In this document: piece after piece, positions 11,348-62,209 of the stretch
How positions within the stretch are numbered: the first letter of the stretch is position 1
How the letters are laid out: each line of letters starts with the position of its first letter
Assembly: GCF_964204865.1 (NCBI RefSeq)
Contig: NC_135264.1
Coordinates: forward strand, 9,982,001 to 10,046,000
Length of the DNA stretch: 64,000 nucleotides
Reading direction: 5' to 3'
From: Styela clava
Lineage: Eukaryota
Notes under the pieces: model-generated
The model's input: the letters and a program-made list of their open reading frames with translations, nothing else
Database searches by the model: none
What the model was told of the DNA's origin: nothing
Translations under genes and position numbers: made by a program

Positions 11348-14300
11348 ATGGAAGACGATGAATTACTCAAAAAACTTCGAAGAAAGATTCATACATATTT
11401 CTACATATTATTAATCGGAATGGTTTTATCTTTTTCGTCAATGGTCGCATTGCAAACTCTGCAGACAAGCATTAATATAGAAGGAAATGTTGGTAAGTGC
11501 TTATGCGGTTTTGCACCAAGTTGTTTGGTTCTCACTAAGATGAGTATAAGGCATACTATTGATGTGAATGTACTGTACTGTAGGGTTAAAATAAATCTAT
11601 GGTAAACCAAACATTTTGCGACGATATTAAATTGTATAAATCACATACTTGAGCAATTTTTATACCAATTAATATAATTATGAATTATATCATTTCAATT
11701 TTTTGATTTAAAAAGTTATGAAGTGTTGGAAAAATTGGTTCCAAATTAGGGTCTGAACAAGCAACCACTAATTTGCAGGTAGCTGCTATTGATCGGCATT
11801 AGAGCAGGATCTGCGGTGCTCACGTATAGTTGGATATCGCTTACTACGCACTTGACCAGCGCGCCTACATTACAATAGCAGATCAGTATTTTAATATAGC
11901 TCATACATCCTCTGTATATATTTTTTCCAGGTGCAATCGCCCTTACATCTGCCTACCTCGGATCAGTATTATATAGCATTTTTGTAGCTCCGATCACAAT
12001 GCGTAGGTTTGGACCTGGACTCAACCTTGTTTTGTCAGATCTTTCATATTTTATATACTGCATTTCTAATTTCTATCCAGGTAAGAGATCGTTTTACAAA
12101 AACTACAATTTTCATATCATAATTTATTATGCTTCTAAATATACACATATTTCTTCTCTCCTTTCAGAGATTTACATCCTTGTCCCAGGAGCCATCATAA
12201 GTTGTGTGGCAAGGGCTATGTTGCTGCCATCAACAGCTATTGCGTGTTTCCAACTTGCAGAGCAGTTTTGCAGATGTGCATCGCAATCTGAGGAAGTGTA
12301 TATAAATCGATTCCAAAGCAGATATGTTGGTATATTTAGCACCGTTTCGGTACGTCAAATCATTATCTTCTTCTAAAAAAGAGGCACATAAATCAACTAG
12401 TTTTGAACATTAGATATTTGAGTATGAAATGGCGAACATGGGCAAAGAGCTGTGTATATAGAAATCGGTACGGATGCTGGAAGCTCATACTGATTGTGAA
12501 GTTTGGGTTGTTATAGACGTGATGATCTTTGCGACAGGATGCTGTGCAATTGCGGATGTATTCATCGATGTCGCAAAAATTCACTAGATCTGAAGTTAGA
12601 CACAGAAATGGTGAATCAAGATACCCCTCGGGAGGAAGACAATAATAATTCTAAGATGAGTCACTTCAATGTGACGTCATTTACATTCATTCGAAAACTA
12701 AATAATCATTCTGTCAATTAGCAGATATAATAATTCTACATCGCAAGAATAATTGTAATTCTACGCCTATGAGACTAAGAACAGTTTTACAGTATCAACA
12801 TCGTTTCAGATCATTGGAAACGGAATATCATTTGCCGCGTTGTCAGGAGGTCAATCGAGTTCCAGTCCAACAACAGGCCCTGACGTAACTTCCGGACCTC
12901 TGAACACCACTGTATTTTGGGGCACTACAACACCATCACCTTTTGTAAACCACAGCCAGTATTATTACTGTGGTAAAAACGATTGCCAGGATCCTGCCGT
13001 TGTAAGCGAAAGCATACATCAATACGTTCCTCCAGATAAAAGAAGCACATATATTCTAGTTTCGACGGCGTCCGCCATATGTGTTATCGCGGTTATTATG
13101 CACGCTTTCATTTATCCCGGAATTGGGAAATTTGGAAACAAGTTACGCGATCTTGATAAACAAACTTCCCAAATAGTAAAGCCTAAGAAAACATCCAAAG
13201 GTACAAAAGTTCCAGGAGAGGGTAGCGAAGTGAAGGAAAATGGACATCTTTCGAGAGAGACAAATACACAAACAAACGGCACAGTTAAAGCAGGGCAAGA
13301 TAACTTCACTTTTGAACCAGATATGGAAAATAATAACAAGTTGGATGATCGTGAACAAAATACTAAGAATTCTTCAAACTATAGATCTAAAAGTGAACTT
13401 TCGGAAGAAGATATACAAGAGAATTTGTCAAAAACCAAGGTAAATTAAGTAAGTCATCATTTTTAACCAAATTTATTTGATAGTTTTGAGTAATATTCCA
13501 TAAAAAAATTGTGAAATCACTTTTCAAACGTATATACTAATACTGCATGCAATTGCGTTATTTATATATATATATTTCAAGCTTGGTTCGATTGAAATAG
13601 TGGTCGCCAAATGGACTTTTACTAGAATTTTGAAAGTTTATATTTAATAAAATTTAATTCTTTGAAACTACTTGAAGTATTTGAAAAATTAAACATAGAT
13701 TATGTTATTTATGTAACAAAATGACAATGAAACTATAGATAAAGCGACTAAACATCGTGCGTTATCGGCGTGAATGATCATTTTTGTGACCGGAATCTTC
13801 TTATTTTCAAATCAGAATCAAGATGGATATTTAACGACGCTTAAGAAAACCGGAAAGTTTCTTATTCGACCTCAAGCAATCTTGATTGGATTTACACCCA
13901 TAAGAAATGGATTATTGATAGGATTCATTTTTGCTGATGTTACAAGGGCTTATGCTTCGTGCGTTGCTGGTGTGCAAATGGTAAAGTTTCTTTGTACTTC
14001 ATTAATAGACCAAAAATTGAGCACGAAGAACGTCACCAGAATACCTCAAAATTCAATGAAATTTGGGAAGCGTTTAACCAGTTTATAAAAATATATATAC
14101 TTTAGATTTTTGGAACATATATTTTGTGTATTAGGCTACCCGACAATGACTTCTAAGCAATTGCTTGTATTACTGAAAAAAGTATCGTAACCAAATAGCA
14201 TTTTTCCAAAAAAAAATTTCAATTTCAATTTTTTTCAAGCATCAGATGGGGTTTTCATATTTTTTGTTTATTTAGACTGGTCTCATTGCTTTGACATTTG

Positions 14301-16377
14301 GTACAGTTGGTATCCCAATTGCTTTAGCCTACGGAAGTTTGGTTAAATATACAGGAAGAAATGTAATGATGGCGATTGGTGCCCTGTTCGAACTGTTAGC
14401 TTATATTGGATGTTACGTTTGGATTCCAAATCCTGACACAATAGTCGTTGTATTCTGTATTTTCATAGCAGATGGGATCGTGAACACTATACTAAAAATC
14501 AACATAACTGGTAAGACGAAGTATATTTTATTCTACCCCAAAACTTTTCGCTTTGCATATGTAGACGTGATAAATCATATATAATTATATAGGAACTAGC
14601 TATGAGCTATTTCACCACCATATAAATTATAACCCAACGTGCGGAAAACTTTCTCAGAAAAACTGTTTATATCGCGAAGATGAGCGCGTATGGTTCAGTT
14701 GCTACTCAATTAAGCAATAATCTTTATTAAAAGTTTGTTCACGTCGGAAAGTTCATGAACATCAGTATCAGAATTTCCATAATTGTTCCTGACTTTTGAA
14801 CAACCACTTTTATTTGTATTACAGTATTATACTCATCTGTGGTTTGCCAACACGGACATGTAGAGATAAGAGTACATAGTTTTTTTAGTCTCAAAAAGTA
14901 GTAAATAATATATGCTTGAAAATTTAAACATCAAAATTGTCTACAGTGGTTTACGATGAATACTTTCCCGGCGAATCACATATATCAGTCAACGTATGGA
15001 ACTTCTGGATGCAAGGCGCTGTTGGTTTACAATATGCACTGAGTACGTTCATGTGTATGGTTGATAAAATATACCTCGGAGTCGCATTTCTCTTTGTATC
15101 TGTGTTTTTTTACGGTGAGTAGTTTCTAAATATTATCTCTCTCTATCACTAAATCGCTAATATAACGTTTCCATGTAGTGGGAGTGAACAGTAAAGAGTT
15201 GGTTGGCTTTAGTCACCTGTAGTTTTAGGGGAGCTCCGGAGTATTCGTACCAAGATGGCGCACTACCTGAACATAGTATTGTACAAGGTTAGGGTTGTGC
15301 GTCATCTTAGTACGAATGCCTCCTGAGCGCCGTTTTAAGATCCACCTCGCAGGGTTAAGGGCAGTGGTGGGATTCAATTTTTTTGTCAGCCGGTTTCATC
15401 ACAAAAGTCATATTTTTCACCCGGTTCTATTACAAAATATCATTGACAGTAGCCAGTAATGCTGACCGGTTCGCTGATCCTATAAAATTCCGTGAGACGG
15501 TTCTATAAAACCGGTGCGAACCGGCTGAATCCCACTACTGGTTAAGGGTCGAGCAAGTTCAGCCGAACGAATCTATATCCTAGGTACATTAACGCGCGAT
15601 ATCGTCATAAAATGTCCGATATTGCTATTTGTGTAAAAGTGGTGGAATTTATTATTGAACATTAAGAGCGACCGAACAAACAAAAGTTCGCACGAAAGGC
15701 TTTGTCAACAAAGTGGAACATTATATTATATTCAGGCTATAAAATAATATGCTGCAATGCAATCTCTTATATTCGTTTCGAGTGTATCAATCATTGATTT
15801 AGGTAACAGATCAAAAAGACACAGAAAAATCTATTCCTATGCACAGTTTTAAAGAATCTGGGCGTTTGTAATTGGTGTTACTTTTTCGACATAAAACTTT
15901 CAAAACTGACTTTTTATTGCTTCTCGAAACTATATTCAATTTCAACACCCGACTAATCTCCAAAACAGGATTATAGTCAGTGGTGCTGGGGGAAATATTT
16001 TAAGAATGGATTATCTTTCGTATCGAACTCACTAACAACATGGCACACTTTACATAAATCTAACATAACTTTTGAAACGACAAATATAATGCTATAGTTG
16101 TCAGCAGCTGCAGTGCACGTAAGCCATTTGCTGCGGGCGTCCAACTTCCAAAACAAAAGACAGTAACGGGTTCACTGATATCACGATATTCTAGGAACGG
16201 GTTCGTACAAATCCACTAATAAAATCCCATAACCACTAATAAAAACCCCATAACATAAATTTAAACCATTTTTGTTTTATAGCAATCGCAGAAATTCGAC
16301 ATTCTGCCAAGAAACGTGCCAAAGAAGAAGAAAAAAAACAAGAAGATGAACCACAAGCATCATCAACGAAACTCTAA
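11348..16377 (+). CDS. UNC-93-like (UNC93A-type) MFS membrane protein, copy 1
   Basis: 8 exons: 11348-11492, 11931-12080, 12168-12349, 12810-13439, 13816-13980, 14276-14510, 14947-15114, 16283-16377. Motifs LQTLQTSIN, SNFYP, CGKNDC, DVTRAYASC are UNC-93 hallmarks. Ends SSTKL*. Confidence 0.88.
15230..15331. mobile_element. ~100 bp hairpin MITE, family copy A
   Basis: Arms ggagctccggagtattcgtaccaagatggcgcac / gtgcgtcatcttagtacgaatgcctcctgagcgcc; flanks gttttagg / gttttaag (7/8 TSD); second copy at 42494. Confidence 0.75.
15362..15540. mobile_element. hAT-superfamily MITE
   Basis: TIRs cagtggtgggattca / tgaatcccactactg, perfect 8-bp TSD gttaaggg (15354-15361 and 15541-15548), internal ccggt subterminal motifs. 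Confidence 0.9.
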
Positions 16378-17083: not shown

Positions 17084-20000
17084 ATGGAGAAGATTGGAAG
17101 CGATATTCAGCGCCTTCAAATTCGACGGCGAATTAATTTTTATTTTTATAGTCTTGTGCTTGGAACGGTTTTGTCATTTTCTGCTTTTGTCTCTCTACAC
17201 ACGTTGCAAACGAGTATTAATATTCAAGGAAAATTAGGTAAGGAGAAATGACATGTACTGTATACCAATGTCAGTAATATATGATAAGAAGGTGCCAATA
17301 ATTTCATTTTTGAAAAAAATGATTTATATGAATTTGCTATATCTTGATTGTGCGAAATATTAGGACTCGAGCTTGCTACAATGGCAAGTGAATTTACTCG
17401 TTTTTTTGCGGGAAATGCAAAATAGCACGCCAGTACATAATACATATCCGAAAATGACGCAACCGACGCACTCTTAAACTATTAAATTATTCTTCTCCTA
17501 TTTTGATGAATACATTACTAAAAATGGGAAAATTTATAAAGAAATCGTTTTAAAAGATAGTGCACAGAGGTTTTATGTCAGGCAGGAATCGAAAAGCAAT
17601 ATAGTCTTGTTCAGTGAAAAGAAAAGTCATCCATTATTTCGAATCGAGTCTCCTGCGACAGATATCCTACATGGACATGCGTGTGATTTCCTAAGTGATA
17701 AACACAACTATACACGGCGTCAATTTACTTTTTCACTCGGTTAAAGTAAAAATCAAACCAATGCGAAGTCTGATTGTACGAAGTTTATGTAAATATATAT
17801 ATATAGATTCTCCACAAACGAATAAAACATGGCCATCAATACTTTAGGATCTCTTGGTCTCACAGTGGTGTATTTCGGATCTGTTGTCTACAGTCTATTC
17901 GTTGCTCCGATAACGATGAAAAGATTTGGTCTTGGCCTCAATTTAGTGATCTCGGATCTCAGTTACTTGATCTACTGTGCCTCAAATTATTACCCAGGTA
18001 AGATTCCAATGTTGGTATACACTGTACAACGTATTCTACGCCTGTACAGTTTGTAGTACTAATCCGGTAACTAAACCCTTTTTCAGGAATTTACGTTTTG
18101 TTACCCGCATCCATCATAAGCTCAGTGGCACAATCCCTCCTACTCCCCGCGACATCAATTGCAGCTTTTCAGTTGGCCGAAAGATTTTATCAATGCAGTT
18201 CGCAGACAGAAGAGGTTTATATTAACCGCTTCCAAAGTCGGTTTGTCGGCCTGTTTAGTTCAGTATCGGTAAGTCCGATGAATTACTACGTACATTAGAA
18301 ATTCTACATTAAAAATTTTCTTGGAGGAGCAAGTTTTATTCACATTTCACATAAGATTGTGAAAAAATGCCTCTTCTTGCTATTCAATTAGTACCGCACT
18401 TAGCAATGAATACTTAATATTTCAGATAGTGGGCAACATTATATCCTTTGCTGCACTATCCGGAAGCAAATCCGGCTCGATAGAGGATGAAAATAGCAAC
18501 ATAACATTTTCTTCAGTCAATACAATAGAGGCGACTACCCCATCTCTTTCTCCAAATCGTAGCGGATATAACCATTGCGGAGTACAAGATTGTCAAGATC
18601 CCGAGATCATTGAAAATAACATAAACCAATACGTCCCCCCTGACAAAATAAGCACCTACATTCTTGTTTCGGCAGCCTGTGCAGTAAGCCTTGTTTCACT
18701 CATAATTCACGCGTGCGTCTATCCGGGGATCGGGAAATTCGGACGAAAATTACACAATCTTGATAGAGAAATAACGCAGTTCTTGAAGCCTAATGACGAA
18801 TCGAAAAGTATGGAGTTTACACTTGAAGATAGTTGTAATAACATAGTCACAGCCGCGGCGATGACCACGACAGAAAAAGTCGCCGAATCACAAATTTGTT
18901 CTTCTATAAACAAACAACCATACGCCGGTCAAGACATCTCCACCCTGAACACCGATACCGGCGATCTCAATGAGGTGTGTTGGCAAAAATCATTTTCATA
19001 TTCATTTTAAGATTGGATTAAGATTCATTAAAAAGATGAATAGGAGTACAACAAGCAATCAAATTTAAACTGCCCAACATATAAAAACTTTTCTTTACGA
19101 TTTACAAACTTCTAGAAAATAATTTTTCACTAGAATGTAGGCGATGGATATTGGGAAACATTAAAAGCAACTGCAAAGTTTTTCATCCGACCTCAGTCAA
19201 TTCTAATTGGGTTCACCCCCTTTCGAAATGGAATGATTATTGGATTTATGTTCTCCGACGTAACAAGAGCTTACGCCTCGTGTGTTGGTGGCGTAGAAAT
19301 GGTAAGTTTATGGAAAAGATGTTGAACTCCAAGAGCACATGCTATTAATGATAGAATGAACGGTACAGGTAATAAGATTTTCGAGGTCATATATTTGGGA
19401 ATTATTTATTCGTTCAACATCGTATTACGTCTCTTTTCAATATTAATATATGGTTTTCTAATAATAATTAAAATTGTGTGTTATATTGAAACATTCTGAG
19501 CTGATTGAGTTTATTACAATTGTAAAACGGTAAATAGGCCAATTGCAAAAAAGAGAAAAATGTTCGTGTATTTTTTGATAAAAAATAATATATATATATA
19601 TGTGTGAACAGGTTGGTCTTATAGCAATGGCGTTTGGGTCAGTTGGAATACTCGTAGGTCTGATTTACGGCCACGTAGTAAAGTATACAGGAAGGAATGT
19701 AATTATGCTGATAGGATTTCTGCTTGAAATGTCGGTTTACATTGGTTGCTATGTGTGGGTTCCTGACCCGAATACAATGTATTATGTGTTTCTAATGTTC
19801 ATTGGACATGGAACGGTAAACTCTCTGTTGTACATTTCTGTTAATGGTGAGTAATTTTGTTGGGTACTTAATACCTATATTCAGAAAAACGGTGGTGTTT
19901 CATTTCTCGTTAATCATTTGCCTCTCAGTGCAAGGTTGGGCACGATATATTATCACGAACCAATATTGGTATAAATTTTCTAAGGGAACGCAAGACGTTA

Positions 20001-20864
20001 TTTAAAGAATTTTATACGCATATAAGCACTGTTGGAAAATAAAAGTATTAATCGCATTATTTTTATTGACATTCATCACGGCAAAGAAATTGAGAATGCG
20101 TTGCAGTGCATGTGAATATTCCTTCTAGAAACAAATGTTCTATATAGACACGAACAAAACTTGCTTTTTTACCCCAAATTGCCACCATTTTCAGTTCAAT
20201 CGAGTCCAACTCTTTTTTAATTGTCCCGTGTTTATTCACTAATATATATATCATTATTCATGCAGTCGTTTACAATGAGTACTTTCCAACGGAATCCCAC
20301 ATAGCGTCAAATGTCTGGAACTTTTGGTTTCAAGGGGCAACAGGATTGCAGTTTGCATTGAGCACATTCATGTGTGTTGTGGATAAAATCTATCTCGGAA
20401 TGGTTTTTCTGACCTTTTCTATGCTAATGTACGGTAGGTATTCATTAGATAAAAATTTAATTTTTGAGGAATTCAATAAATAAAACTACGTCAATCGAAT
20501 AACAGAATTTACGAGTTGTAAAAATGCGAAAAAATGCAAGCATGTCCAAAAAATACCAGTAATCTGGAAATCGAGTTTCTAACTTTCTTTTAGCGGTGAA
20601 CAAACACGAGTCTCTTCGATTTCACATTCATCAAACGAAATTTTGACTTCCCGTCCTAAGCTCAATTTGAGGTTTCACCTTTTTATCAATCATGTCTCTC
20701 CTTTAGGCTGATTATGGACTATGGAATTGTAGGTCATTGTCGGTTTTACTAAATGGAACGCGTAATTTGTTTTTGTAGTCGCGGCTGAATTTCGCCACCG
20801 AAGGAGTATGAGACGGGAGAAAAGTGCTACAAATGAATCTTCGTGCAAAGTAACAAAACTTTGA
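17084..20864 (+). CDS. UNC-93-like MFS protein, copy 2
   Basis: Same 8-exon layout; LHTLQTSIN, SNYYP, CGVQDCQDP, DVTRAYASC; ends KVTKL*. Confidence 0.87.
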
Positions 20865-21426: not shown

Positions 21427-24400
21427 ATGGCGACGACGGATATCCAAGTGAAACAACGTAGAAAAATTCGCCGAAAGATAAATTTTTATTTTTACAGCCT
21501 CGTGTTGGGAACTGTATTGTCTTTTTCATCTGCGGTAGCTTTACAATCTCTCCAAACAAGTATTAATATAGAAGGAAATGTAGGTAAGTTGAGGTACAAA
21601 TACCAATCACATAATTACCATTTGAGGTAGATAGAATGAATATAAGGTGGGTATGAGTGGGAAGATAGCCAATCAAATAGCATCGTTTATGTGTGACTAC
21701 CTATGCTATTGCCATTAGCAGTTTTCGTCTGCGATATTCGGACAAACGGAAGCAGAGCTATGTAAAGAGCACTGTCCGCACGAGTACACAGATAAGCGTA
21801 TACGTGAGCTGATTAAAAAACGTACCAGAATCACAATTATTAGAAAACAGTTCCGTAAAACTGACTCAATAATTCAGGTTCTATCGCTCTCACCTCGGCT
21901 TACTTTGGATCTGTTGTCTACAGTCTATTCGTAGCTCCGATAACGATGAAAAGATTTGGTACTGGCCTCAATTTAGTGATCTCGGATGTCAGTTACTTGA
22001 TCTACTGTGCCTCAAATTATTACCCAGGTAAGATGTGCTATTCATGGTATCCAATGCTAAACCGTTTTTTCTAATATGAATCTGTACATTTGAGGATTGA
22101 AATAAATGCCAACGTAGTAAATATTTTCGTTGTTATATTGCACGAGCAACTTTACAGCAACCGTTTCTTCTTCCGAATACATTGAGCAAACATATTAAAC
22201 TCGTTTATTAGCTCATTTTTATTTAAAGGCTCAAGCCCACAATGGCATCTTTGATATGTAACATCGAATTGATTTTATTTTAACGTATTTCACTTTACCA
22301 CATATTTTAAATTTCAAACACATTTTATGGCTTACTTTCTATAATTATTTTTAGAGATTTATGTATTAGTACCGGGATCAATCGCAAGTTCAGTAGCGCG
22401 ATCTCTTCTACTCCCAGCAACATCAATCGCAGCTTTCCAATTAGCTGAGCAATTTTATCGGTGTGGTTCTCAAGCGGAAGAAGTTTATATTAACCGTTTC
22501 CAAAGTCGATACATCAGTCTTTTTAGTTCTGTATCGGTAAGTGTGTCTAAATTGTCACTGCTACCCGGAGTGTACAGTCGAGTTCAATTCTAGATTCTGA
22601 TTTTTAGACACGGAGTGGACCCTATGGGTTGTTTTGTTACTATGTTGTTGTTCTACTCTTTTTTATTTCCCTGTTAGTATATTTCTTCTATGGAAAAATA
22701 GATTTTCTCTTCAATTACAAGACCAATTGCTTTCAAAGGTTCAGCGGGTAAAGATTATTGTTGTCCGTCTTCGACTCACAGAATGGGGAACTATGCTCAT
22801 AATATGTTCCTATTCGGCTCTAGTTAACCAGAACCCACTCAATATACATCAGTGCAAAATTGTCCTTAAATATGTTTTTATTTGATTATTCCAGATTGTA
22901 GGCAACGCAATATCGTTTGCTGCTTTATCCGGAAGCAGACAAAATATTGAAAGTGATGAGATTGCTAACGTAACAATTGCATCAGAATATACCAAAATGA
23001 TATCAACTACAGCATCACAATTCGCAAACCGCAGCGAATATTACCACTGCGGAGTGAACGACTGTCAAGATCCCGAGATTGTGGAAGAAAACCTGAATCA
23101 ATATGTTCCTCCTGACAAAATAAGCACTTATATTCTTGTTTCGGCAGCTTGTGGAATCAACTTGATTTCATTCGTAATACACGCTTTCATTTACCCCGGG
23201 ATTGGAAAATTTGGACACAAACTCTACAACTTGGACAAAGAAATTTCTCTTTTTCTAAAACCAAATGCTTCGTCGACAAGTTTGCAGTTTGCAATCGATG
23301 ACGATGTTGATCAAAAAAATAACAATAAAGAAACAGACGTTCCCGCTATTTCCAACAAAAAAGAGAATTATGATAACCCAGCATTTGTCCTAGATTCACA
23401 AGATTTTACGACGGCAAAAAAAACCAACGATGAAACCAATTCTACTTCGAAGACCGATGCTGTTCATATTGATGAAAAGTCTATGGATAGTCATAATGAG
23501 GTATCAATCATATTACAATCATCAGCAAATTTTACTAAGTCATTAAAACATCATCAAACATAACCCTTGGGTTTCGCTAGTACAGTCCAGATGTTCCACA
23601 AGTTCACATTCAAATCCGTTAGACTACATTATTCAATGTATATTGTCCCCTTTTTGTCCCCAGATTTAAATCGAAGCGGGCGCGAGGCACCCTTAGATAC
23701 GTCGATGTAAGAATTTGGAATAGCATATAGAGATTAGAACTGACTACATATTGAATGTTGATTGGTTGGTCTGATTTGTGGAGTCTGACTCTAGTTTCGA
23801 CCGACAAGAGTTTTGCACGTGAAGTTCGTGAACCCAAGCTATCAATCTGACGATAGCCACCGGCAGTGCAGAATAGATAACTTACTAGTTTCCACCAATA
23901 TGCATACAGAATACAAATCTCAAGACTAGACTATCATTGAAAAGATATTGAGCAGTATACAAACAGCGAACCAATATTAAAAACGTGATCTCATGACTGA
24001 GGTCAAAACAGAAACTCAATCAGCTCAATACGAGTAATTATGTACGTTTCACGACTGAGAACTAAATAGCGTAACAAAGCGTATATTTTAATTTGATAAT
24101 GACAGGACGAAACATGTTCATGGGAGCTAAAGTTGTGTAATATGTTCCTACGAAAATTATTATTAGAATTTCGAGGAAAAAGTTACTTTGTTTGTCATAA
24201 TTTTAACTATAATTTGGGTAAATTTTGGGAGTTGATGCTATAAATATACCTTACAGCATTAAGTCATAACTAAAACACAATTACGCAATCACTTACACTC
24301 CTTTTTTTCTTCATATCTATGTCTGGCCATCTCCCAATATCATGCTCTTATGATTTCAACGTCTCGCGGCCAGATTGTGGATCTTAAATTTTGTACTATC

Positions 24401-46864: not shown

Positions 46865-47581
46865 TCAAATATCAATCTCACAAATAGCTCGCCTTTGTCT
46901 ATCACAATTAGTGTCATCTAGCTTTAGGTGTTCTAGCCACAAGGTACAGCAGTTTCCAGAACGATGGTCCGAAGGCTCTCGTGGGGCCCACAGTGAGCTT
47001 GTGGAAGACAAAACATCTCCGGTACTCCATACAAAAACTCCTTCATTATCAATATCATTGAGGCCAATCCAAAACGACGATTTTTCTTCTGTAATTTTGT
47101 CGAAAATTCTTCTGCGAGTATTTACATCGAGAATTCCCTTTGTCAGCAACCTGCCGCCCTTATTTTGGCACATGATTTCAGCTTCGTACCAATTCATTTG
47201 ATTCGCAGAAAAGAAAAATGCCATATCTCCAAAAACGACCAATCCGCTAGCTTTCCACAACACCGCCTGCTTTCTCTCCAGTTGCCTTATTCGTTCTTCG
47301 TAAGCCAAAATCGCGTCAGTGGAGATTTCAGCACTTCTACCTGGAGGCCCTTTGTCCCCTTTAGGACCGACGTCACCCAGATTTCCTTTGGGGCCGATAG
47401 GTCCGCGTTTGCCAGGCCTCCCTGGTTTACTGGCTGAACCAGGTATTTCCAAAATATACCCTGACCCATTGGGCCTTTCTTCAAGCCTACAACATTGGTT
47501 AGCGGAAGATACGTGTATTATAAGACACAACAATACGATAAAAAGACTTTGATTGACTCGCTGCGTACGCGGCTGCATCAT
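46865..47581 (-). CDS. Collectin (signal peptide, Cys-Cys, ~10 Gly-X-Y triplets, coiled-coil neck, C-type lectin domain), intronless CDS
   Basis: Hydrophobic N-terminus; GRPGKRGPIGPKGNLGDVGPKGDKGPPG; neck YEERIRQLERKQ; CTLD motifs FWIGLND..EG.F.W, EPS and the canonical cysteines. Confidence 0.92.
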   Translation of the reverse strand: MMQPRTQRVNQSLFIVLLCLIIHVSSANQCCRLEERPNGSGYILEIPGSASKPGRPGKRGPIGPKGNLGDVGPKGDKGPPGRSAEISTDAILAYEERIRQLERKQAVLWKASGLVVFGDMAFFFSANQMNWYEAEIMCQNKGGRLLTKGILDVNTRRRIFDKITEEKSSFWIGLNDIDNEGVFVWSTGDVLSSTSSLWAPREPSDHRSGNCCTLWLEHLKLDDTNCDRQRRAICEIDI

Positions 47582-49399: not shown

Positions 49400-50152
49400 T
49401 GTGGCGTACCAAAATTGATATCACCACTCAGGTTCTTTCTGCCAGCTTCTTGGACGTTGTAATTGCTATAGATGTCGATCACAAAATAATCTTCTTGCGG
49501 TTCCAAATACAGCAGAGTAACTAAGTTAACTAACTAGATTAATTATACACCTGTAAAAACTTAATACAACCAAATACTCCAATAAGAAATACAATAAACA
49601 AATAAAAACATGAAAAACACAGTACAAATACCGTAGGATACATACGAAACCAAAAGATACGGAATTGGTCTATGACGTCACAGTCATGAACTATTTACTT
49701 ATAATGGGATACTAAAAACCGGGTAAAACATACCTAGATATACAAGAATAACTAGTATGACACTAAAGATACAACACAAATCCTATCTTATCGACAAACA
49801 CGTAATAGACATTGAAATACGCATAGAAATACGGAAATCACACAGGAAATAAACTGCGAAGATAGACTAGTTACGGAAGTGTTAAATACAAGCTAACTAG
49901 TGAACAGAGCTATGCCAAACTGGAGAAATAGTAAACCTGTACTACTAATATCATTTTACAACAAGAATTACATAGATTTACGGCATTAAAACACTATAAT
50001 AATAACCTAATATACAGAGAAATATCTACACTGCCGGCAGCCTGACAAACCAGCTGAAAGAGAAAGTTACACAGCTGCTCACTAGTGACTCAAGTGGTAA
50101 GAATAAATATGGGCGAACAGAATAAAACAGGGTTATAGACGTGGTCGTCTCA
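49400..50152. mobile_element. Probable solo LTR (753 bp)
   Basis: Starts TGTGGCG and ends CGTCTCA (TG...CA, imperfect inverted ends); 4-bp direct repeat CTAC on both sides; strong A-rich strand skew. Confidence 0.55.
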
Positions 50153-51674: not shown

Positions 51675-54600
51675 ATGGATTATTCGGTAAAAGAGGCCAG
51701 GAAAAAGATTCGTCATTTGTTTTATTGGAAAACATCTGGAGTAATATTAGCTATATCTTCACTCGCTGCGTTGCAAACTCTTCAGACAAGTATAAATATC
51801 GAAGGAAATGTCGGTAAGAGAAACATACAAGCCCCATTGTGTAATATAAGAATTTTATTTAAAGATAAATTAAGCACATGCTTTGTAAAAGAGATTTTAT
51901 TATACTCGTAGTACTGTTGTGTGGTAAATACCCCAAAAGTAAGGAAAACGACTAAAACAATAGTGCATCTAGGGATGGCCAAAACCGAATGCATTTTAAG
52001 AAAATATTTTCGAATATTTTACATTTTAAATTGGGGGCAAGTTCGTGTGGAAAAGTACGTAAATCACTATATCTTTATGTTGATCATATCTAAAATGACG
52101 TAAATATGACGGTCAACGTTTCATCTGTGTTGTAAATTTCAAATTTGAATATTCTAAATTATTCCTAGATTCAAATTTGATTCGTTTTGCAAGTAGGTAT
52201 AAGATAAGGTAACTGATAGTATTTTTCACACACCACTTACAAATCTTTATCGATGAATTTGACCATAATTAAATATTTTGTGATACAAAAATAATAACAG
52301 TACAGGGAATAAAAATAAATACAAGATATGTACTTTGTTTCAGGATCTATATCACTGACTGCAGGCTACATCACATCAATATTATTTAGTGTATTCTGCT
52401 GTCCTATCATAATCAAACGTCTGGGGTCGAATGTTGGAATAGTCGTCGCAGATGCATGCTATTTGGTCTACTGTTTATCGAATTTTTATCCTGGTACGTT
52501 ACTAAGCTTTCAAAAATATCTCACGTGTATGCTAGATCGATGCTCGATCGTGAATTGAATAATAAGACTTCAGTAACTATGGAAACATAAATTACTATCT
52601 CAGTATATGTATTTATTATCTTCAAATGCAGGGGGGAACCAGCTTTTTCATAATTCACACTCAGGAATAAGTCATGTGCCAATAAATAATTTCGTCAAAG
52701 AACGAGTCAACAATATCGGAATACTGGTAAATTATTAAATGTATTAGGACTCAAAGATCAAGCTGTAATGACGATTGATAAACTGCTGTTTTGGAAAAAT
52801 ATCTATAACTAATTCAATCAACAATAAATAACACGCTGAGAAAATTGAGATATGCTGATACATTGTTCTTTTTAGAACTTGGGGTTCTAACATTCGGAGC
52901 CGTGGTGAGCGGTGTGGCAAGATCATTGTATTTTCCAACTTATACAATCTTGATAATTCAACTTGCAACTACAAGTACCGATATCGGACCACAAAAATCG
53001 GATGGATATTATTTTGACCTGTTTCAGAGCAGATTCTACACGAGTGTGGAAAGCGTATCTGTGAGTTTATCAATAAGTTTAATCGTAAACAACATCGAAA
53101 ATGGCACTTTATGCCAGCAAAAGTCATTTGGTGAACGTTTTGATTTGACTGTAGACTGAGAAGCGATCAGCGTAATACTAAATACTTAAGCAGCGCGTCA
53201 AAACAAACAAAAATACAAAGGACGGTGCTAGTCCATGATTTTTCGATAAAGAGTTATTGTACTGACCTGATAACTCGCATTTAAGAAGTTCTTTTTTTAT
53301 TCGTAGATTATCGGGAATGGCTTGTCCTACTCCATTCTGTACGGCATATCTGCAGCAATCAGTTCCGGCAGCGATGAAACTGCAATAGTACCGAATGTAA
53401 CAGCCACACCAAACATAACAACGTCAGTAGCCTTAGTCGACCCATACAGATACTGTGGCGTTAACGACTGCCAGGATCCTTCCGTTGTCAGCGAAAGTAT
53501 AGATCAGTACGTACCTCCAGCAAAAATCAGCGTTATCGTGCTCATTACAGTTGCAAGTTCCCTCTGTATATCTGCAGTTTTAATACACGCTTTGATCTAT
53601 CCTGGTATCGGCTCATTCAGTCACAAACTCGAGCAAATTAAAGAACTTGTCGTCAACAGCAATGACGTCAGCATTCACGTTTCAAACGTAACGACTGACA
53701 TCTCACTTCAAGGCGATGTCGCCGATAATAACAATAACGACACGGACAAAAAGGTTTTGGATACAGTGACTTGCTATCAAAATTCCAGCTTCAGTGATGA
53801 CGAAAAAGACATTTCGCTTAATGGATATACAATTCCTTCACCAGAAGAAAAGAAAAAAATTGACAGTTCTTCTATAACTCTGTCCGAAGATAACGTCCCT
53901 AATGAGACTAAAAATCAGCAAGATGTCGAACGTCCGGCGGATAATGATAAGAAGGTGTGTATGATAAATCCAAATGTTGCCAACATCCACTCTATATAAC
54001 TTGAATCTTGATTAAGATAGAGCTATAAATTAGCAGCTTTTATTAGGCGAACTTTCCTATTATTCTCTCGTCAAATTAATTTTGTTTCTACGTTAACCAG
54101 GAAGAAAAAGTTGAAAAGAGCTATTTGGAAATACTGAAAGCAACAGGAGTGTTTCTAATTCATCCCCAATCATTAATGCTGAGTATTTCAGTTCTCCACC
54201 ACGGAATGATGCTTGGATTTGTTTTCGCTGACATGACTAGAGCTTACGCCTCATGCGTTGCAGGAGTTGAAACGGTAAGTAAGAGAAGCCATAAAACAAA
54301 AACATGTACTTTCTTGGCGCCCCGTTGAGTAGAAATATGATTTTACCGAAACTGAATTCATAATGATTCAAGATGATATTGCCATGAGCCAGTATATAAA
54401 ATACTTGAAGAGAGCATTCAATTAATTTTTCAGAAGCAAAAATACAAAAAGTTTTTATATTTCATAAATTTAGAATTGTATGCAGATCAATACAAAAATC
54501 TAAAAGAAATTGTTTATATAAAAAATAATAACGAGTGCGCCGAAAACGCGTCATTTAAGACTGAGGGGGTTGTCATAAATGATTTCTGTTTATATATATA

Positions 54601-55894
54601 TACAGGGTGGGCCAAAATTTTATTTTTACAAATTGTAAATGTGAAAATGGTAACATTTTCTTGGCCCACCCTATATACTCACAGCTGCTTAAATCTGCTT
54701 TATTCACGTTTAACAACTTTTTAGACGGGACTTTTCGCTATTGTTTTTGGCGCACCGGCAATGTTATCTGCAAACATATATGGAAAGCTGATCTTCCCTC
54801 ATAGACGATATGTTTTATACGGAGCATCATGTGGACTCGAATTTCTTTTGTATGTTGGCTGTTATATGTGGGTGCCAGATCCGGATACTATTTGGCTTGT
54901 TTATCTTCTCTTTGCTGGATTTGGACTAGTGAATGGAATATTTCGTCAAAATATTGTAGGTAAGTACCGTATCGTTAAAAGCACATTTTTTAGAAAAACG
55001 ACACCATTTGGTACAATTATTCCAAATCATGCGCTGTTCTGATTTTCTATTTTTACTAGCAAAGAATAAATATTTATCACGTAGAAGTTATTATTGAGAT
55101 GTATAATTACTGAATGAGTTGCATTCAATCATCTTACCAGAATTCACAGTATGTATTTATAATTTCAGCGGTATTCAATATTCATTTCTCGGACAATAAA
55201 GACGTGGCTTTCAGCGTCTTTAACGTTTGGTTCATGGGTGGGTTAGGAGTGCAGTATGGCCTCAGTACTTTTATGTGTGTCGAAGACAAGCTATATACTC
55301 AAGTAGCTGTGCTGGTTCTTGGGGTTGTATTATTTGGTAAGTACATGCATCCAAGTAGCTTTATTAACAATTATTCTTATATGAATATGGGTGGCTGTTA
55401 CCACATAATATGATACAAAATGGCGGATTTGTCCGCGACTGCACAGTATCTGGCGTGTAGCAATACCACGCATACAGTTTAATTTATGAAATGTTACGTT
55501 GGTTAGTGCTCGTCAACGTAGAATTAGGTAAATGTACGCCATTGGTAATAAATCTAGAATATAAACACAATAATATTACAGAATTTGGAAATAACCAAGA
55601 TATTATTAATATGAGCACAACAAAAACACATAGATATATGAGGGCTACAAAAATATTGAACACAAGGGATACCATGTATTTTAATGAGATATATTTGTGA
55701 ACAAAGTTTATCGCTCGTAACATAATATTTATTGTAGATTTTTTAACAACTATAAAAATTACGACGGTCATAACTACCTATATTTTATTACTTTTACAGT
55801 CGTTACGGAGTTGATTTACACGACGGGAAAGAAAAATTCGAACACACAACAAGATGTGGAAAATACATACGTCGAAAAGAGAACTAAATTGTGA
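51675..55894 (+). CDS. UNC-93-like MFS protein, copy 7
   Basis: Same layout; LQTLQTSIN, CGVNDCQDP, DMTRAYASC; ends KRTKL*. Confidence 0.87.
54603..54673. mobile_element. Tc1/mariner-type mini-MITE
   Basis: TA-cagggtgggccaa ... ttggcccacccta-TA. Confidence 0.7.
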
Positions 55895-56136
55895 AATTTA
55901 AAACCGATGGGTCAACCTTTAACGGGTATTTCATATACGCCTACACTTGAAAAAAGGCTCAGTGATCAAAAATTTAGCATGATCAGTGTACTGAACTACA
56001 GCTGGAACAACATTCCAAAAATCTGAATAAAAAGTGGAATTCTAAGGCCATTAAAAAGTAAATAACTCTCGTCCACTTTCAAAAAACGTTTCAAGTCTAT
56101 TATACAGAATATAATACTTGGTATTATTGTTTTAGA

Positions 56137-59100
56137 TTATTCCAGTGGTTTTGCCATTTCAAGTATTGCCTGCCTAACAACAGAGTGTTTTTGTAATGTC
56201 TCCTTTGCCACTTTGACCGAACAGTCCATTTTAGCTAAAACAATTGCAAGAGGTACGACCTAAAAATATAATTTTGATACTCATTATAATAAAGCAGTTA
56301 TCTCATCAACAAGACAGACGTGATGAAATACGTGTATTTGGTTTACCTTGTCTTTCCTGGCTGCAAATATATAATGCTCAGCAACAGTTTTGTTACGTCT
56401 TTCTTCAGTAACAACGTTTGTTTCGTAAATCGATTTCAGTAAAGAGTTTGTAGCTTTCTCGTGACTAACGCCATGACACATTTTCTGCGATCGTTAAATT
56501 TGTGAAAAAATCATATATATGAAAAAAAACTAATAAAAGTCAATAATACATTTTTGCTTCAACTTGAAATATTTTCACAAACACGCTTGTACTGCGTCGG
56601 AATGCTTGAAAAATGAACACTTTATCAGATGGGCGATTCAGGAATTGTTCTTTTAAAAAATGGCAGAGTTGACTTAAATATATTCAATAAGACAATAAGA
56701 TAATTAATATGTATTTTCTTTGTTTTTTAGCATTTTTGAAAATATTTATTTGATTTTCATCAAATTTATTTCATTTGTTGTTGTTTTGTTTAAAATTATC
56801 ATTTATTTCTGAAATAATACACACAGGAAGTTGCTCAAAGTGTGGAAAGCCCCTTATAAATAGAAACAGGGGAGTGGGTTGAAAAAGAGGTACATAATCC
56901 ATTTGTTTTACAAATCCAAAGAACAAAAACCTCTTTACCTTGATAATTTCAATTGCTCTATAATAAAGTTTATTATTGCTGACTTTCACATCACACATGT
57001 AATTCATAAAAACCTGGAATGATACAAAAAATTGCATAAATGGTAAACTATTATAAACATGCCAAAATCATCCAATATACCTTGCCCAATAAGACATGCC
57101 CTCCAGTAGACGTGGCATTGACCAGCCATTTCAGGCAACAACTATAGAGAGATTCCTCAAGAGCTTCTCTGCATGTCACACTCCAATAAGTGAGTGCCGT
57201 CTTGTCATACTCGGGGAAAGTTACTCGTAGAATATCATCGAAATACTTGTTCTGCAAATAGTAGTGTTAATGTATAAGCAAAAGAACTATTAAACCGCCC
57301 AACTAAATAATAGATTACACCAATCACTTACCATATCCGTTTCACATATCTTCTCGGCTGTAGGGTTCTCCAACAAAACTGCCACAATTTTGTTTTTTCC
57401 TTTGAGGTTTATGAGAACATCGCCCAAGTCTATGAAATATATATATAATAAATGCAAAATTATACTGTTAAATTGAGAAAATTTGGACTCTCTAATAAAT
57501 TAGGTGCCGTTGGTACCACCATATTTCTGTGCAACTTCCAAGTAGTTTTTTTGATATTCGGTAACCGCGCTAGACTTAACTCAAAGGCCAGTCTTCCTTT
57601 TCTTTACCACTGAATGAACATGTTTGACCTACCTTGGCACACATAGCCAAATGTGTTAATTTTTTATTTGAAACATGAAAACGAAAAAACGTAAATAGAT
57701 ACCGTTATTTAATATTGACGTCATGATCGGGTCATCTTGTGATTGAATGAAGACGATTACTGCGTCATTGCCAACGTCTTGAGATTTATACATTTTGATA
57801 AAATCGTTCACGCCAAGTTGAAAGTATTTCTCCTAATTGAGGGAAAATAAGGTGTTATGACCGAAAATACGCAATGCGTCAATATTGACTAGAGAACTAT
57901 GAAAAAAATGGAACAATTCGCAACACATAGATGAAAACACCGTCTGACCTGCTGTCCAAAATTTTCTATTCCGAGAAAATCGTATCCTCCGTGAACGAAT
58001 CCACGAACGTCATCAACACCTGGCGGAAAGCAAGTAAAAGGGTTGAAAATATGATTGTACTTATGTAAAATATTAAATACTTGAACCTACTTGATCCAAA
58101 TGTAGGCGGGCATTCTGTAGAATCAATAAGCGGTACCACACCCATCCAACCGGACGCTACATAGCGGATTTTTGCATCTGCTGTCAACGCAACTCCACCT
58201 CGTTGCACTAGGGCTGACATGACATTAGCAGTTGTTTTATAGAAATTTCTAAAAAAAGTATAAAGTATTTGTATAAATCTTCTAATAGTGAATTAGTGCC
58301 CAAGATCGCATTCTATCACGTAACCAACTTCAAGGTAATCTTTAGGAATCCTATTAATATTAAATACATATTTTTGTCATTTTTTAGTTTTTGATAAATT
58401 AAAATTTATCTGGAAATCAATCTAGAATTTTTTTCAACTTAACTTGCCTGCAAACTTCTTCATAGAGTTTTAATATACTTGTGACGTTCCCACAACTTCT
58501 GGTGTTCGATGTGTCTTTTCCAATATCATTCAGGGCAGACAAAAAGATTGTTTCCAATATCACCTTGGTTGCAGTACCTCCCTTCATACGAGATGATCCC
58601 GTTATAGCTTCCCCCTTAAAGATGAATTGATTTATCGCATCAATATTTATTTATAAGAGGTTATCATAATCATACTCACCCCTAACACTGGGTTGATAAC
58701 AAAACCCTTTCCTTCAAGAGAGACGACGTTTAAATCAGATGCAACTAAAGGTAAAAATGTGTTAAAAATACTGTTACCAGATCATTTAGCCGTTTCACAA
58801 ATTTATATTTGATTTTAAGCATTCAAAATTTAAACATTACCGGTTCTCAAGGTTTTATCCCAGCCAACAATTTCGACATCTCTGAAAGAAGTGGGACAAA
58901 ATGAAAACTTTCATACAAACAATTCTGTCATAGCTTTCTGATTAAATTACCTACCTTGCCATGTTGAGGGGGTTAAAACCCAACAAAACCGGTATGAATT
59001 TATCTAAGTGTTTCATACAGTAATCAAGTTGTCCTCCGACGAATGGAGCTGAAATTCCACAAGTAATGCCAAAGTAGATAACCTTTTTCTTGTTGTGGCA

Positions 59101-62100
59101 AATCTAGTTTATGTAAGCATATGAAACAAATTTTTATAGTGCTAACTGAGGTAAACATAGGGAATTGGATCTACATAGTATTCCTGTAAAGTGACATCGA
59201 AAAAAACGAAAAATAACCTCACCTCTAACAGCGATTGCACCCCAGCATTGGGATCGTCTTCTGGCGCCTCTTGTGACGTGAGTATCGACCTATTACCAAA
59301 ATGAATATTGAGGCCAAATCGTCATAAAATAATGACTAATAACTTACGTTAATAACTTACTTGTTTCCACCAGCGATCGAGTAATAGAATGGCCTCCCCT
59401 TCGAAAGTTTGCTCGTTAGTTTGTTACATACTTTCTGAATGAAAAGCCAATAAATATATTCATATTTAGTTTATCCTAATTCAATTTTAACTATATTTTG
59501 GGTTGTTTATTCTACTTACAATCCCATTGCGACTTCACAATTTCATGTAATTATTATTCAGACCTGAATACTAGACATGACCGTCACTGTAATGGTTTAT
59601 AATTCCATTTGTTGCATAAAGTTCCCGAGAATTGAATTAAGTTTGAAATGCTGCTTTAATATGGGATTTGGCCTAATTCGATGTGAATGCTCAACAAATG
59701 AATTATAAAAGTGGCCAAACCTAATTTCCGAGATCTTGGGTATATATACAACGTTCAATGTATTCAAAACCACAAAAATGCTTCGGATGGTCATAAACTC
59801 GTAAAATTCTAAATTATGATAAAATAAGTGTTGCTTGAACATTCATATTCGTACTCACGGATATGAGATATCCTAATCGTCCTGAAGTTCCACATCCTGC
59901 AAGTACAATAGCTATGTCCTCTGGAGGAAAATTTCGAAGGAACTCCTCAACCAAACTAGTTACTCCACTGATGCTCTCCAAGACTCGTTCGGAAAACAAC
60001 CCCTATAGAAAACAAGCGGCTATTATGAGTGGGACATCGTTTATGTTATTGTATCAACCTAAATCTTAAATTCAAAATTTTAAAGTTTGGATAATTGGCT
60101 TTTTAAAAACAATGTAACGATAAAAGAAAGATGAGTGGGGAGAATTGTTACTTATTCATGGCGTTAACCAGCTTCCGGAAAAGCCATTTCATTTTAGATG
60201 AAGAAAAAAACAAGCTAAAGCACCTCAAAATCTCGAGCGATCTACAAGTTCTAAAGTGTAGTAGTATCCAATTATGGAATATTATCCGTTTTAGCACCTT
60301 TGCCATTTTTATAAATGCGGTTGAGGTTATAACCAATGCGACATGTAACGCAAAAACTGACTATGCAATATAAGGAATATCGTCAAAAAATAGGAAATAT
60401 TTTTGTAAATTGTTTTGTTTGCTGCCGTGGTTCGAATTATAAGTAGCATTTTATTCTATCGCAAAAGGGTTAGCAAATATAATGCTCAATTACTATCGTC
60501 TTCAGCAAAAATTGTAATGCCACCACACTAAGGGGAAATACGAAAAGTGGCGTACGTCGTATAAAGATGTTTATTCAGTTCGGCCGAAATATTTGCAATT
60601 AGTGAAGAAAAAGGAGTACAGATTTCAATATAGCCTACTGTATTTACAATTTATGCTATATACCCTGGGTCAAATTGATCCCAAGTATTGATTTAAATTC
60701 AGGGGTCTCAAACTCGCGGCCCGCGGGCCAATTGCGGACCGCAGGATGATAGTTTGTGGCCCCCGCCTTGGTATTAAAGTTTAATGTTAGTGCGGCCCGC
60801 AAGTCACTTAACTCAGTTAGCATGATTAATGCTTTTAATATAATAGCGTTTCCCAAACTGTGTTCCGCGGAACACTAATGTTCCGCGAGCATCTCCCGAG
60901 TGTTGCGTGGAAAAGGAATCAAAAATACATCTAAATTGGTCGCCATGGCGATCTGAAAATCATGAAGTTGTTGCCCAACTGACCGTTTAAAATCGCGTCA
61001 CCGTCGGCCTAAAGTGGACTAACTAAGTTGGTGCCATTTTCGTTAACCGTCGGTTTAGCTTTTTGACTGTTAACTTTGGTTTTGTTAAAGACATAAATAA
61101 AAGCAAAAGGTCAACCGTTCTTCCTCCATCTCTACCTGGTTTTACTTTGAAATGCTGAAAGTTTGTCGCGCATTTGCAACTCGCCACGGCGAAACCATTA
61201 GGAACCGCTACATTGCACCGTTTTTCTTTATCAATTTAACCCTTTCATTTTTTGGTGTTCCGCGAGGAGATATAAAAAGTGTAAATGTTCCGTGGCCGAA
61301 AAAGGGAAACTCTCACGTAGGACAAATCAAAATATTTTATCATCTATCCCCTGAAGAAATTTGTGGTGCGGTAACCTACCAGTACCATACCTGTAAGCCT
61401 GATATTGAATCGCGGGACCGCCGGAAATAATTTAAAAACAGTGTTCCATGATATTGGACGTCACAATCACTAACGCTTAGGTTTATCTTGATACATTGTA
61501 ACCATGTTTCCCATGTAGCGAAACACCACTGTCCATCGGCTAAATGCTTGATTGAAACATCAGCGCAACAGTTATTACATAATGGAATTTTATAATTTCG
61601 CATATTCCTAAACGTGTCGTTGGAAGTGAAGTTTCAGTAAACAGAGGTTGGTGATGAGCACAGACAATTTTAAAAAAAATGGGAAATTCAAATATGCAAT
61701 ATTTCTTTGTTGACACAGTTAAAGTTGCAGAGCACAAGGAATACAATTTAAACGAGTTGCTAAGCTTTTATTTTGGAAAACCTGATGCGGCCCGGACTCA
61801 TCCAGACTCTGCCCCAGCGGCCCACAAGTAAATTGAGTTTGAGACCTCTGATAAATGTTTTCTGATTGAATAAGATTCCACTGCCGCATGTGCCCGCACC
61901 CAAACTATATTTTGAATGGCTTCACTTTGTAGTGAATTTTCATTAATTCGCCTATTCAAAAAATTCTAATTACAAGATATAAATCCCACTCGTGCTTTAC
62001 ACACAAAGGGTACAAGTGTGCAATTTCAGTCCGTTGCCGTCCAAGCAAAATATGAAAACCAGATGTAATTAAAACTTTACCTCTGTATTTACACCAGAAA

Positions 62101-62209
62101 ATATCTCCGAATCAGTCAGCCGCAGAAGTTCAACCATTTCTGCAGGAGTACTAACGTCTATTTTTTCTGTAATTTCATTGCTGCGTTCAGTGAAAGGAGT
62201 GTTGTCCAT
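56137..62209 (-). CDS. GCKR: Glucokinase regulatory protein-like (GCKR / MurQ-related, two SIS domains), ~600 aa, 16 coding exons
   Basis: Exon 1 62081-62209 (MDNTPFTERSNEITEKID), exon 2 59859-60002 (GCGTSGRLG), then YSIAGG, QEAPEDD, GITCGISAPFVGGQLDYCM, LLGFNP, ITGSSRMKGGTATK, DSTECPPTFG, KWLVNATSTGGHVLLGK, VSNNKLYYRA. Stop at 56137-56139. All junctions are phase-consistent. Confidence 0.92.
60700..61850. mobile_element. Non-autonomous hAT (Charlie-like) element in GCKR intron 1
   Basis: TIRs caggggtctcaaactc / gagtttgagacctctg with repeated gcggccc subterminal motifs; TSD degraded. Confidence 0.8.
60844..61314. mobile_element. Second hAT-type MITE nested inside the previous element
   Basis: Left end tagcgtttcccaaactgtgttccgcggaacac; right end gttccgtggccgaaaaagggaaactct; repeated gttccgcg motifs. 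Confidence 0.6.

Follow-up and report, generated by a model that had tools for sequence, protein, structure and literature searches.

Seven divergent UNC93A-like genes of Styela clava beside a collectin-like gene and a probable MurNAc 6-phosphate etherase gene: an amino-sugar locus or chance neighbours?

Do seven transporter-like genes, a lectin gene and a gene related to a bacterial amino-sugar enzyme, lying together in the genome of the ascidian Styela clava, form a unit that handles amino sugars, or are they neighbours by chance? The question is raised by a stretch of 64,000 nucleotides (assembly GCF_964204865.1, contig NC_135264.1, positions 9,982,001 to 10,046,000 of the forward strand; 30–39% GC, zero N), referred to here as the window, in which positions 11348 to 62209 hold an array of UNC93A-like genes, a collectin-like gene and the gene for GKRP (GCKR), a relative of the N-acetylmuramic acid (MurNAc) 6-phosphate etherase MurQ (Table 1). 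An earlier note, made from the sequence alone, had read these genes as a candidate locus for the uptake or sensing of N-acetylglucosamine (GlcNAc) or MurNAc, while allowing that their co-location could equally be chance. We judge chance to be the more likely. Our best explanation, which we hold to be the probable one, is that the array, the collectin and GKRP are chance neighbours, that GKRP is likely an etherase, and that the array proteins would be PDZ-anchored carriers whose substrates have drifted; a functional amino-sugar locus is unlikely. The genes are real and have already been annotated one by one.

A repeat search (seven-copy families at 4–10 kb spacing), together with tblastn with copy 1, recovered seven homologous plus-strand genes, the number that had been claimed, each of which was modelled with eight exons, GT-AG introns, identical intron phases and a single terminal stop. 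Copies 1, 3, 5, 6 and 7 and GKRP are identical by letter to NCBI proteins P0012, P0010, P0001, P0002, P0005 and P0014, respectively, the first five of which bear the name 'unc-93 homolog A-like [Styela clava]'; the protein that matches copy 2, P0006, stops after exon 6. The collectin reading frame does lie within the array, between copies 6 and 7, and the gap between the stop of copy 7 (55894) and that of GKRP (56137) is exactly 242 bp, both as described in the earlier note. Pairwise identity among the seven copies is 37–70%, with the exception of copies 4 and 5, which at 94% are recent duplicates. The dN/dS ratio is about 0.20 for copy 4 against copy 5 and about 0.18 for copy 2 against copy 3 (four other pairs tried were saturated), and the array copies are under purifying selection. 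No further UNC93A-like copies were found in the 30 kb downstream or the 20 kb upstream of the window, and inspection by eye, with libraries not searched, found no protein motif in 20 other open reading frames (ORFs) of at least 85 amino acids between 11348 and 62209. Intron 2 of copy 1 (window 12081–12167; 87 bp) is in frame and stop-free, so that its retention would insert 29 residues between exons 2 and 3.

Expression was considered using contigs from runs X1, X2, X4, X6 and X7, which we guess to be RNA and of which the contigs are strandless and the tissues unlabelled. Spliced joints were seen for copies 1, 2, 3 and 4/5, the joints placed on copy 4 in X1 and X7 being ones that may derive from copy 5, while GKRP had four spliced joints in four of four runs from three studies. 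Of the joints shown, those of copy 7, at all seven of its introns, come from X1 alone and those of GKRP from four runs, absent contig cover being no evidence. The collectin is represented in X1 by a near full-length contig of 746 nt without differences, and by pieces in X2 and X6. Spliced GKRP contigs extend 441–469 nt beyond the GKRP stop, across the last exon of copy 7, and one contig spans the last acceptor of copy 7 into the last two exons of GKRP; such an overlap of 3' ends is expected given the 242-bp gap.

Table 1. Positions in the window of the array genes, their two neighbours and the overlap of GKRP with copy 7
Feature	Position	Strand	Description
UNC93A-like copy 1	11348..16377	+	8 exons, 589 aa, C terminus -STKL; = P0012; three spliced joints in X1
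UNC93A-like copy 2	17084..20864	+	8 exons, 563 aa, C terminus -VTKL; contig piece and one joint in X1
UNC93A-like copy 3	21427..26713	+	8 exons, 582 aa, C terminus -VTKL; = P0010; exon 7-8 join in X4
UNC93A-like copy 4	28026..32597	+	8 exons, 568 aa, C terminus -KTKL; 94% identity to copy 5; joints in X1, X7
UNC93A-like copy 5	34500..39199	+	8 exons, 569 aa, C terminus -KTKL; = P0001
UNC93A-like copy 6	41035..46535	+	8 exons, 585 aa, C terminus -KTKL; = P0002
Collectin-like gene, intronless	46865..47581	-	one ORF, 238 aa; flanked by the stop of copy 6 (46535) and the start of copy 7 (51675)
UNC93A-like copy 7	51675..55894	+	8 exons, 597 aa, C terminus -RTKL; = P0005; all 7 introns spliced in X1
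GKRP/GCKR	56137..62209	-	16 exons, one GC-AG intron, 599 aa, single copy; = P0014; SIS-SIS-lid
Tail-to-tail overlap of GKRP and copy 7	55668..56486		X2 record 13, X4 record 16, X1 record 5

The other genes of the pathway are not linked to the array. NAGK, NagA and two GNPDA genes lie on contigs C8, C9, C2 and C8, respectively, and none of the four on the array contig, C19; the nearest UNC93A-like match is 1.27 Mb from NAGK, 3.5 Mb from NagA and 4.1 and 2.6 Mb from the two GNPDA genes, none of the four having such a match within 1 Mb. NAGK matches human NAGK at E 1e-81, and the NagA-like gene gave exon matches below the whole-protein cut-off; with NAGK, a NagA-like gene and two GNPDA genes in the genome, the route from MurNAc to fructose 6-phosphate therefore looks complete. 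The NAGK and GNPDA genes (L045, C8:23.57 Mb; L048, C2:21.85 Mb; L049, C8:12.53 Mb) are single uninterrupted frames, which suggests intron loss or retroposition. With the fungal GlcNAc catabolic cluster and the bacterial mur and nag operons the Styela neighbourhood shares only the idea of a transporter beside an amino-sugar enzyme, whereas the genes for its kinase, deacetylase and deaminase are spread over three other contigs. In E. coli, murQ adjoins murP, which encodes its phosphotransferase system importer; no such conserved link was found for Styela.

Conservation of an UNC93–GCKR linkage, which had been proposed as a check, was seen neither among the Styela–Ciona pairs listed nor among the vertebrate neighbours named. 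The Styela–Ciona best BLAST hits (PMC9953650, Table S3) cover 9,073 of 18,203 pairs; among those listed, GKRP pairs with KY.Chr7.1056, copy 7 with Chr1.2216, copy 5 with Chr11.366 and the TMIE-like neighbour of copy 1 (described below) with KY.Chr14.1117. Fifteen UNC93A-like Styela rows in the list (a count that excludes two further motif places and one non-homologous row) pair with six Ciona genes on Chr1, 4, 6, 9 and 11, and none of the 15 with a gene on Chr7, where the three listed neighbours of KY.Chr7.1056 (1050, 1053 and 1066) are not UNC93-like. Another gene of GKRP's Styela contig pairs with Ciona Chr7.1178, a hint that the array moved in beside a GKRP gene already resident there. The neighbours named for vertebrate GCKR are FNDC4, IFT172, ZNF512 and others, with no UNC93 gene among them (PMC3613411). 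Beyond GKRP on that Styela contig, 000066F in Table S3 (PMC9953650), genes 19–33 include three HD-domain genes (SAMHD1-like by eye) and three more short-collagen lectin-like genes, so that tandem arrays and collectin-like genes appear to be locally common.

GKRP, which the earlier note had called MurQ-like, has kept both glutamates and the loop type of that enzyme. It is single-copy, all 15 genome matches falling at the locus beside the array, and its SIS_N, SIS_2 and lid regions are all above the cut-offs of their Pfam families. Glu126 aligns with Glu114 of E. coli MurQ and Glu324 with Glu83, two residues that we take to be catalytic in MurQ and that PMC12680351 does not name; vertebrate GKRPs keep both glutamates too, and the pair alone is therefore no proof of activity. 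At E up to 0.1, exon 9 matches three chains of MurQ but none of the vertebrate GKRPs, because ECPPTFG is kept there (frog ECVPT, mammals ECIHT). The MurQ-type ECPPT(F/Y)G loop and the N-x-K-L motif of the lid, both present in Styela GKRP, are common to the sponge and two unnamed GKRPs. With MurQ and the non-vertebrate GKRP etherases (lancelet, Naegleria) the Styela protein thus shares the fused two-SIS-plus-lid arrangement, both catalytic Glu positions, the ECPPTFG loop, the GTSGR and GSSRMK motifs and the single locus. In a 2026 preprint, the main text of which reports no tunicate etherase activity, such activity was measured at 1493 per M per s in the GKRP of lancelet, at 703 per M per s in that of the chordate ancestor and at 3140 per M per s in E. 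coli MurQ, with none detectable in rat GKRP (10.64898/2026.05.08.723886). Given the MurQ-type residues and the activity measured for the lancelet and ancestral proteins, Styela GKRP is likely to be a working MurNAc 6-phosphate etherase, a reading that the lancelet preprint has largely anticipated in print. Its homology to vertebrate GKRP extends over the whole length (E 1.5e-113 to frog GKRP), but the vertebrate proteins differ in the ECVPT or ECIHT sequence at the second glutamate and in an LLFFEY-type stretch that is not kept in Styela, and the GKRP of Ciona, unlike that of vertebrates, does not inhibit Ciona glucokinase (10.64898/2026.05.05.723016). Intron 8 of the Styela gene has a GC donor at window 58447–58448 (minus strand), and the exon join is backed by contig pieces in X4 and X6.

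The array is a divergent UNC93A subfamily and does not consist of canonical UNC93A orthologs. The label 'UNC-93' applied in the earlier note is upheld by fold search and by the ESM Atlas and needs qualification with regard to Pfam, since only copy 6 of the six copies scanned was above the UNC-93 cut-off (24.2 against 22.9 bits), as was a relative, P0031; Pfam scans of single exons gave no UNC-93 match, and full-length proteins are therefore needed for family placement. The structure model of copy 1 has 12 long helices (mean pLDDT 55 and pTM 0.60, which are modest values), its two best Foldseek matches were UNC93B1 (E 1.5e-8), and the best ESM Atlas matches for an array protein were UNC-93 (score 0.99). 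A Cys pair, CGxxDC, in the loop between transmembrane helices (TM) 5 and 6 is found in all seven copies, and a CGxxxC-type pair in 120 of the 148 further relatives that an HMMER profile search of representatives found among its best 150; a homolog search by words, run with the alignment of the seven proteins, found nothing beyond the six Styela clusters. Along with this Cys pair, the array has in common with UNC93A and UNC-93 (PF05978; Transporter Classification (TC) 2.A.1.58.2) the 12-helix fold of the major facilitator superfamily (MFS), its placement in the tree, and LQxSxN and RAYxSC-type motifs, but its members have a long polar central loop and fall within an ascidian expansion.

The extent of that expansion was apparent both from trees and from the genome. 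In a FastTree tree of 136 rows (the seven copies, 128 relatives of 400–700 aa and, as outgroup, an MFSD11-like protein from contig C13), the array copies sit in a clade of 56 rows; 17 of its members were looked up, and the 13 that were named are all ascidian (Styela, Ciona, Clavelina, Phallusia). The same clade is supported at 99/97 in an IQ-TREE tree of 25 rows, where P0031, encoded on contig C5, is sister to copies 4–7 (97/96). Searches of the Styela genome gave at least 49 gene-like UNC93A matches at no fewer than 26 sites on 11 contigs, so that the array is one of many, and its copies appear to have arisen by local duplication inside an ascidian-wide expansion of UNC93A. Further UNC93A-like tandem arrays lie at C19:11.02–11.08 Mb (five), C19:11.63–11.65 Mb (three) and C14:14.07–14.12 Mb (four). 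Two or three canonical UNC93A genes, which a fish UNC93A matched best, are found at G000:C8:9859000-9886000. A single gene at G000:C13:16016400-16045250 (minus strand), MFSD11-like to judge from its motifs, was the only locus obtained with the Pfam UNC-93 model in a six-frame search; a grouping of the array with this gene was rejected (approximately unbiased (AU) test, p 0.012).

Further evidence that the array has departed from its family comes from conserved residues. A set of 73 columns is at least 70% conserved in 79 canonical rows outside the ascidian clade, and 21 of these columns are kept in none of the seven copies. The TM4 Trp is present in none of the seven, against 90% of the 79 canonical rows and 94% of the 49 other rows of the ascidian clade, and the TM10 motif D-A-x-W-Q-T-Q is likewise missing from all seven. 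The TM4 Trp is present in the MFSD11-like gene, and the canonical genes at C8:9.86–9.89 Mb retain both the Trp and the TM10 motif (D-A-V-W-Q-T-Q); on their sequences, the latter genes would be the ones best placed in Styela to handle the ancestral substrate of UNC93A. By analogy with MFS anatomy the lost residues may shape the substrate site, and the substrates of the array have likely drifted from those of the family. The tails of the seven copies vary except for a final -TKL, which all of them have, compared with 2 of the 148 relatives, 24 of which have a [ST]-x-hydrophobic C terminus, against 3.8% expected from composition; the seven tails share ancestry and hence are not independent. We take -TKL to be a class I PDZ motif, of a kind typical of scaffolded epithelial carriers, and on this reading the predicted carriers of the array would be anchored through PDZ domains. 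We also considered -TKL as a peroxisomal signal and set this aside, because the array proteins are membrane proteins with 12 helices. Our literature search found no paper on the ascidian expansion of UNC93A, on the loss of family residues or on the uniformity of the -TKL tail, all of which are new details.

The collectin protein has a hydrophobic N terminus, a Cys pair, ten Gly-X-Y triplets, a neck and a C-type lectin domain (Lectin_C, 61.6 bits), its Pfam Collagen score being under the cut-off (24.3 against 27.2) because the repeat is short. The Cys–collagen–neck–lectin layout is that of the collectins MBL, SP-D and CL-L1, and SP-D and MBP-A are among its solved-structure matches, but the Styela gene differs in having a single coding exon, only ten triplets and an altered sugar site. 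Of the earlier description of an EPN/EPS-type lectin, the EPS stands and the Glu that would follow it is absent: the site reads EPS..G-N-C, then LDD, where domain 2 of MRC2 has EPN..E-D-C. The full ligand set of calcium site 2, E-P-N..E..N-D, whose roles we assume to be those of mannose-binding protein A (MBP-A), is lacking, the downstream Glu being replaced by Gly and the Asp by Asn. Canonical calcium-dependent binding of GlcNAc is therefore doubtful, and the site appears degenerate, with binding that is probably weakened or altered. Seven paralogs were aligned (nine were fetched), of which two have EPN..E-D-C, one EPN..Q-D-C, one EPN..G-D-C and three are QPD-type. The change from WND to LDD was considered as a sign of lectin decay and rejected, LDD being common in the paralogs and the missing Glu diagnostic. 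Lectins are also plentiful in this genome. When 150 of 295 candidates were scored, 121 were lectin or collagen matches, the closest among them being long uninterrupted frames on contigs C13, C8 and C18, and the collectin family of S. clava, to which the array collectin may be likened, is reported to be expanded, with 25 MBL genes (PMC7540406). The collectin gene of the array appears to be one of several dispersed intronless collectin-like genes, and both the degenerate site and the abundance of lectins count against its being part of a unit.

With regard to substrate, the wider UNC-93 family does have the links to amino sugars on which the earlier note had drawn. Candida Ngt1 we take to be another member of TC family 2.A.1.58. 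It carries PF05978, the Pfam family of the array (10.1101/2025.04.14.648653), plant NOPE1 has been described as an NGT1 ortholog that transports GlcNAc (PMC7151181), and human UNC93A, MFSD11 and UNC93B1 are all in TC 2.A.1.58 (PMC5627054). Ngt1 and NOPE1 were compared with the array by description. Human UNC93A itself is said to be a sodium-dependent GlcNAc carrier, a statement that is unconfirmed and was given little weight because our literature search found no report of it.

A number of points weigh against chance neighbourhood and drifted substrates. Assuming 16,000–24,000 genes, the chance of direct adjacency is 0.2–0.3% per named gene and 1.1–1.6% for the five pathway genes tested, and it reaches 10–15% only with some 50 genes eligible as amino-sugar related; these low odds are not decisive, because the pairing was chosen post hoc from a scan of very large size. 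With the coverage that it has, the Ciona table would be compatible with an UNC93A-like gene, unlisted, next to KY.Chr7.1056, and the overlapping 3' ends could couple GKRP and copy 7 by antisense. A single clade of the seven copies is not rejected by the AU test (p 0.058), 35 of the 73 conserved columns persist in every copy, and the place of the lost residues in the substrate cavity is putative. Lastly, an intronic variant of human UNC93A explains an admixture signal for N-acetylglucosaminylasparagine, although it is footnoted as non-significant in the genome-wide association study itself (PMC10351197); this association supports the amino-sugar idea better than Ngt1 does, yet it concerns canonical UNC93A.

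One alternative built on these points is that some copies still carry GlcNAc or its conjugates, as inherited from UNC93A, and that their linkage to GKRP and the lectin is either incidental or goes no further than an antisense coupling between GKRP and copy 7. The human association, the TC family shared by UNC93A and MFSD11, the overlap of copy 7 with GKRP and the 14 of 29 conserved polar or aromatic columns that are kept in all seven copies are consistent with it. However, 13 of the 29 are kept by none of the seven, among them the TM4 Trp and the TM10 Gln, both of which are common to canonical UNC93A and the MFSD11-like gene, and better candidates for such a carrier exist on C8 and C13; we regard this alternative as unlikely.

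We would give the same low weight to the proposal that the array proteins are accessory subunits, which regulate two-pore potassium channels in the manner of fly UNC93A or receptor trafficking in the manner of UNC93B1 and the Toll-like receptors, their neighbours being incidental. In the fly, UNC93A (CG4928) was found together with TASK channels and transported none of the six sugars tried, but neither GlcNAc nor MurNAc was among the six (PMC7591606). The best fold matches of copy 1 are to UNC93B1 in TLR3 complexes, and the loss of conserved residues would fit a loss of transport; on the other hand, the copies fall on the UNC93A side, in a large, fast-evolving expansion that would suit diversification of substrate, and no gene for a partner channel or receptor was seen in the window.

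Least probable, and by a clear step, is an amino-sugar module under selection, with a collectin to bind the glycans of microbes, an array to import GlcNAc or MurNAc and an etherase, GKRP, to process them, for although the three gene types are contiguous, all have contigs in run X1, GKRP is probably active and the odds of adjacency are low, the pairs listed for Ciona show no linkage, neither the kinase that must act between import and etherase nor any other pathway gene tested is encoded on the array contig, the nested relative P0031 is located elsewhere (C5), the array lacks family residues, the lectin site is degenerate, and a secreted lectin binds surfaces and not free sugar for import. Much the same doubt attaches to a salvage unit in which PDZ-anchored, re-tuned UNC93A-type carriers would import MurNAc or GlcNAc from digested bacteria and be linked by their overlapping 3' ends to an active etherase; it is improbable; if true, it would provide a MurNAc transporter, the first from an animal, together with a chordate gene cluster resembling an operon.

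The remainder of the window holds other genes and repeats. A TMIE-like gene consisting of a single ORF (window 10346–10825, minus strand; Pfam TMIE 70.8 bits) lies head to head with copy 1, with 522 bp between them, and the 3' part of a Sox-type gene, with the last stretch of an HMG box and a final exon that is long and rich in Ser, lies at window 586–792 and 2502–4070 (plus strand). Directly upstream of GKRP on the same strand is an ornithine decarboxylase (ODC)-like gene (Pfam Orn_Arg_deC_N and Orn_DAP_Arg_deC; window 63839–63922, minus strand, and L010:1000-5750, minus strand), the probable last exon of which is within the window. Sox and ODC motifs were absent among the pairs listed in the Ciona table. 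Short high-copy repeats at window 15240–15545, 25250–25540, 40037–40202, 42491–42732, 49450–50055 and 60700–61800 occupy introns and spacers, some as inverted pairs, such as a 47-bp hairpin at 42491–42606; their very deep contig cover suggests a nature like that of miniature inverted-repeat transposable elements (MITEs) or short interspersed nuclear elements (SINEs).

Our current working model, in which the neighbours were brought together by chance, is that MurNAc released from ingested bacteria would be phosphorylated, probably by NAGK, and that GKRP would cleave the phosphorylated sugar to GlcNAc 6-phosphate and D-lactate, with NagA/AMDHD2 and then GNPDA finishing the route. The genes of the partners NAGK, NagA and GNPDA lie on contigs other than that of the array, the usual situation in animals, and the array proteins would be 12-helix MFS carriers held at an epithelial membrane by their -TKL tails. 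The neighbourhood itself is probably ordinary. A complete MurNAc route in a filter-feeding chordate would nevertheless explain what GKRP did before it came to inhibit glucokinase in vertebrates, and the expansion of UNC93A in ascidians to dozens of genes with altered conserved residues may serve as a natural panel for finding the substrate of an orphan carrier.

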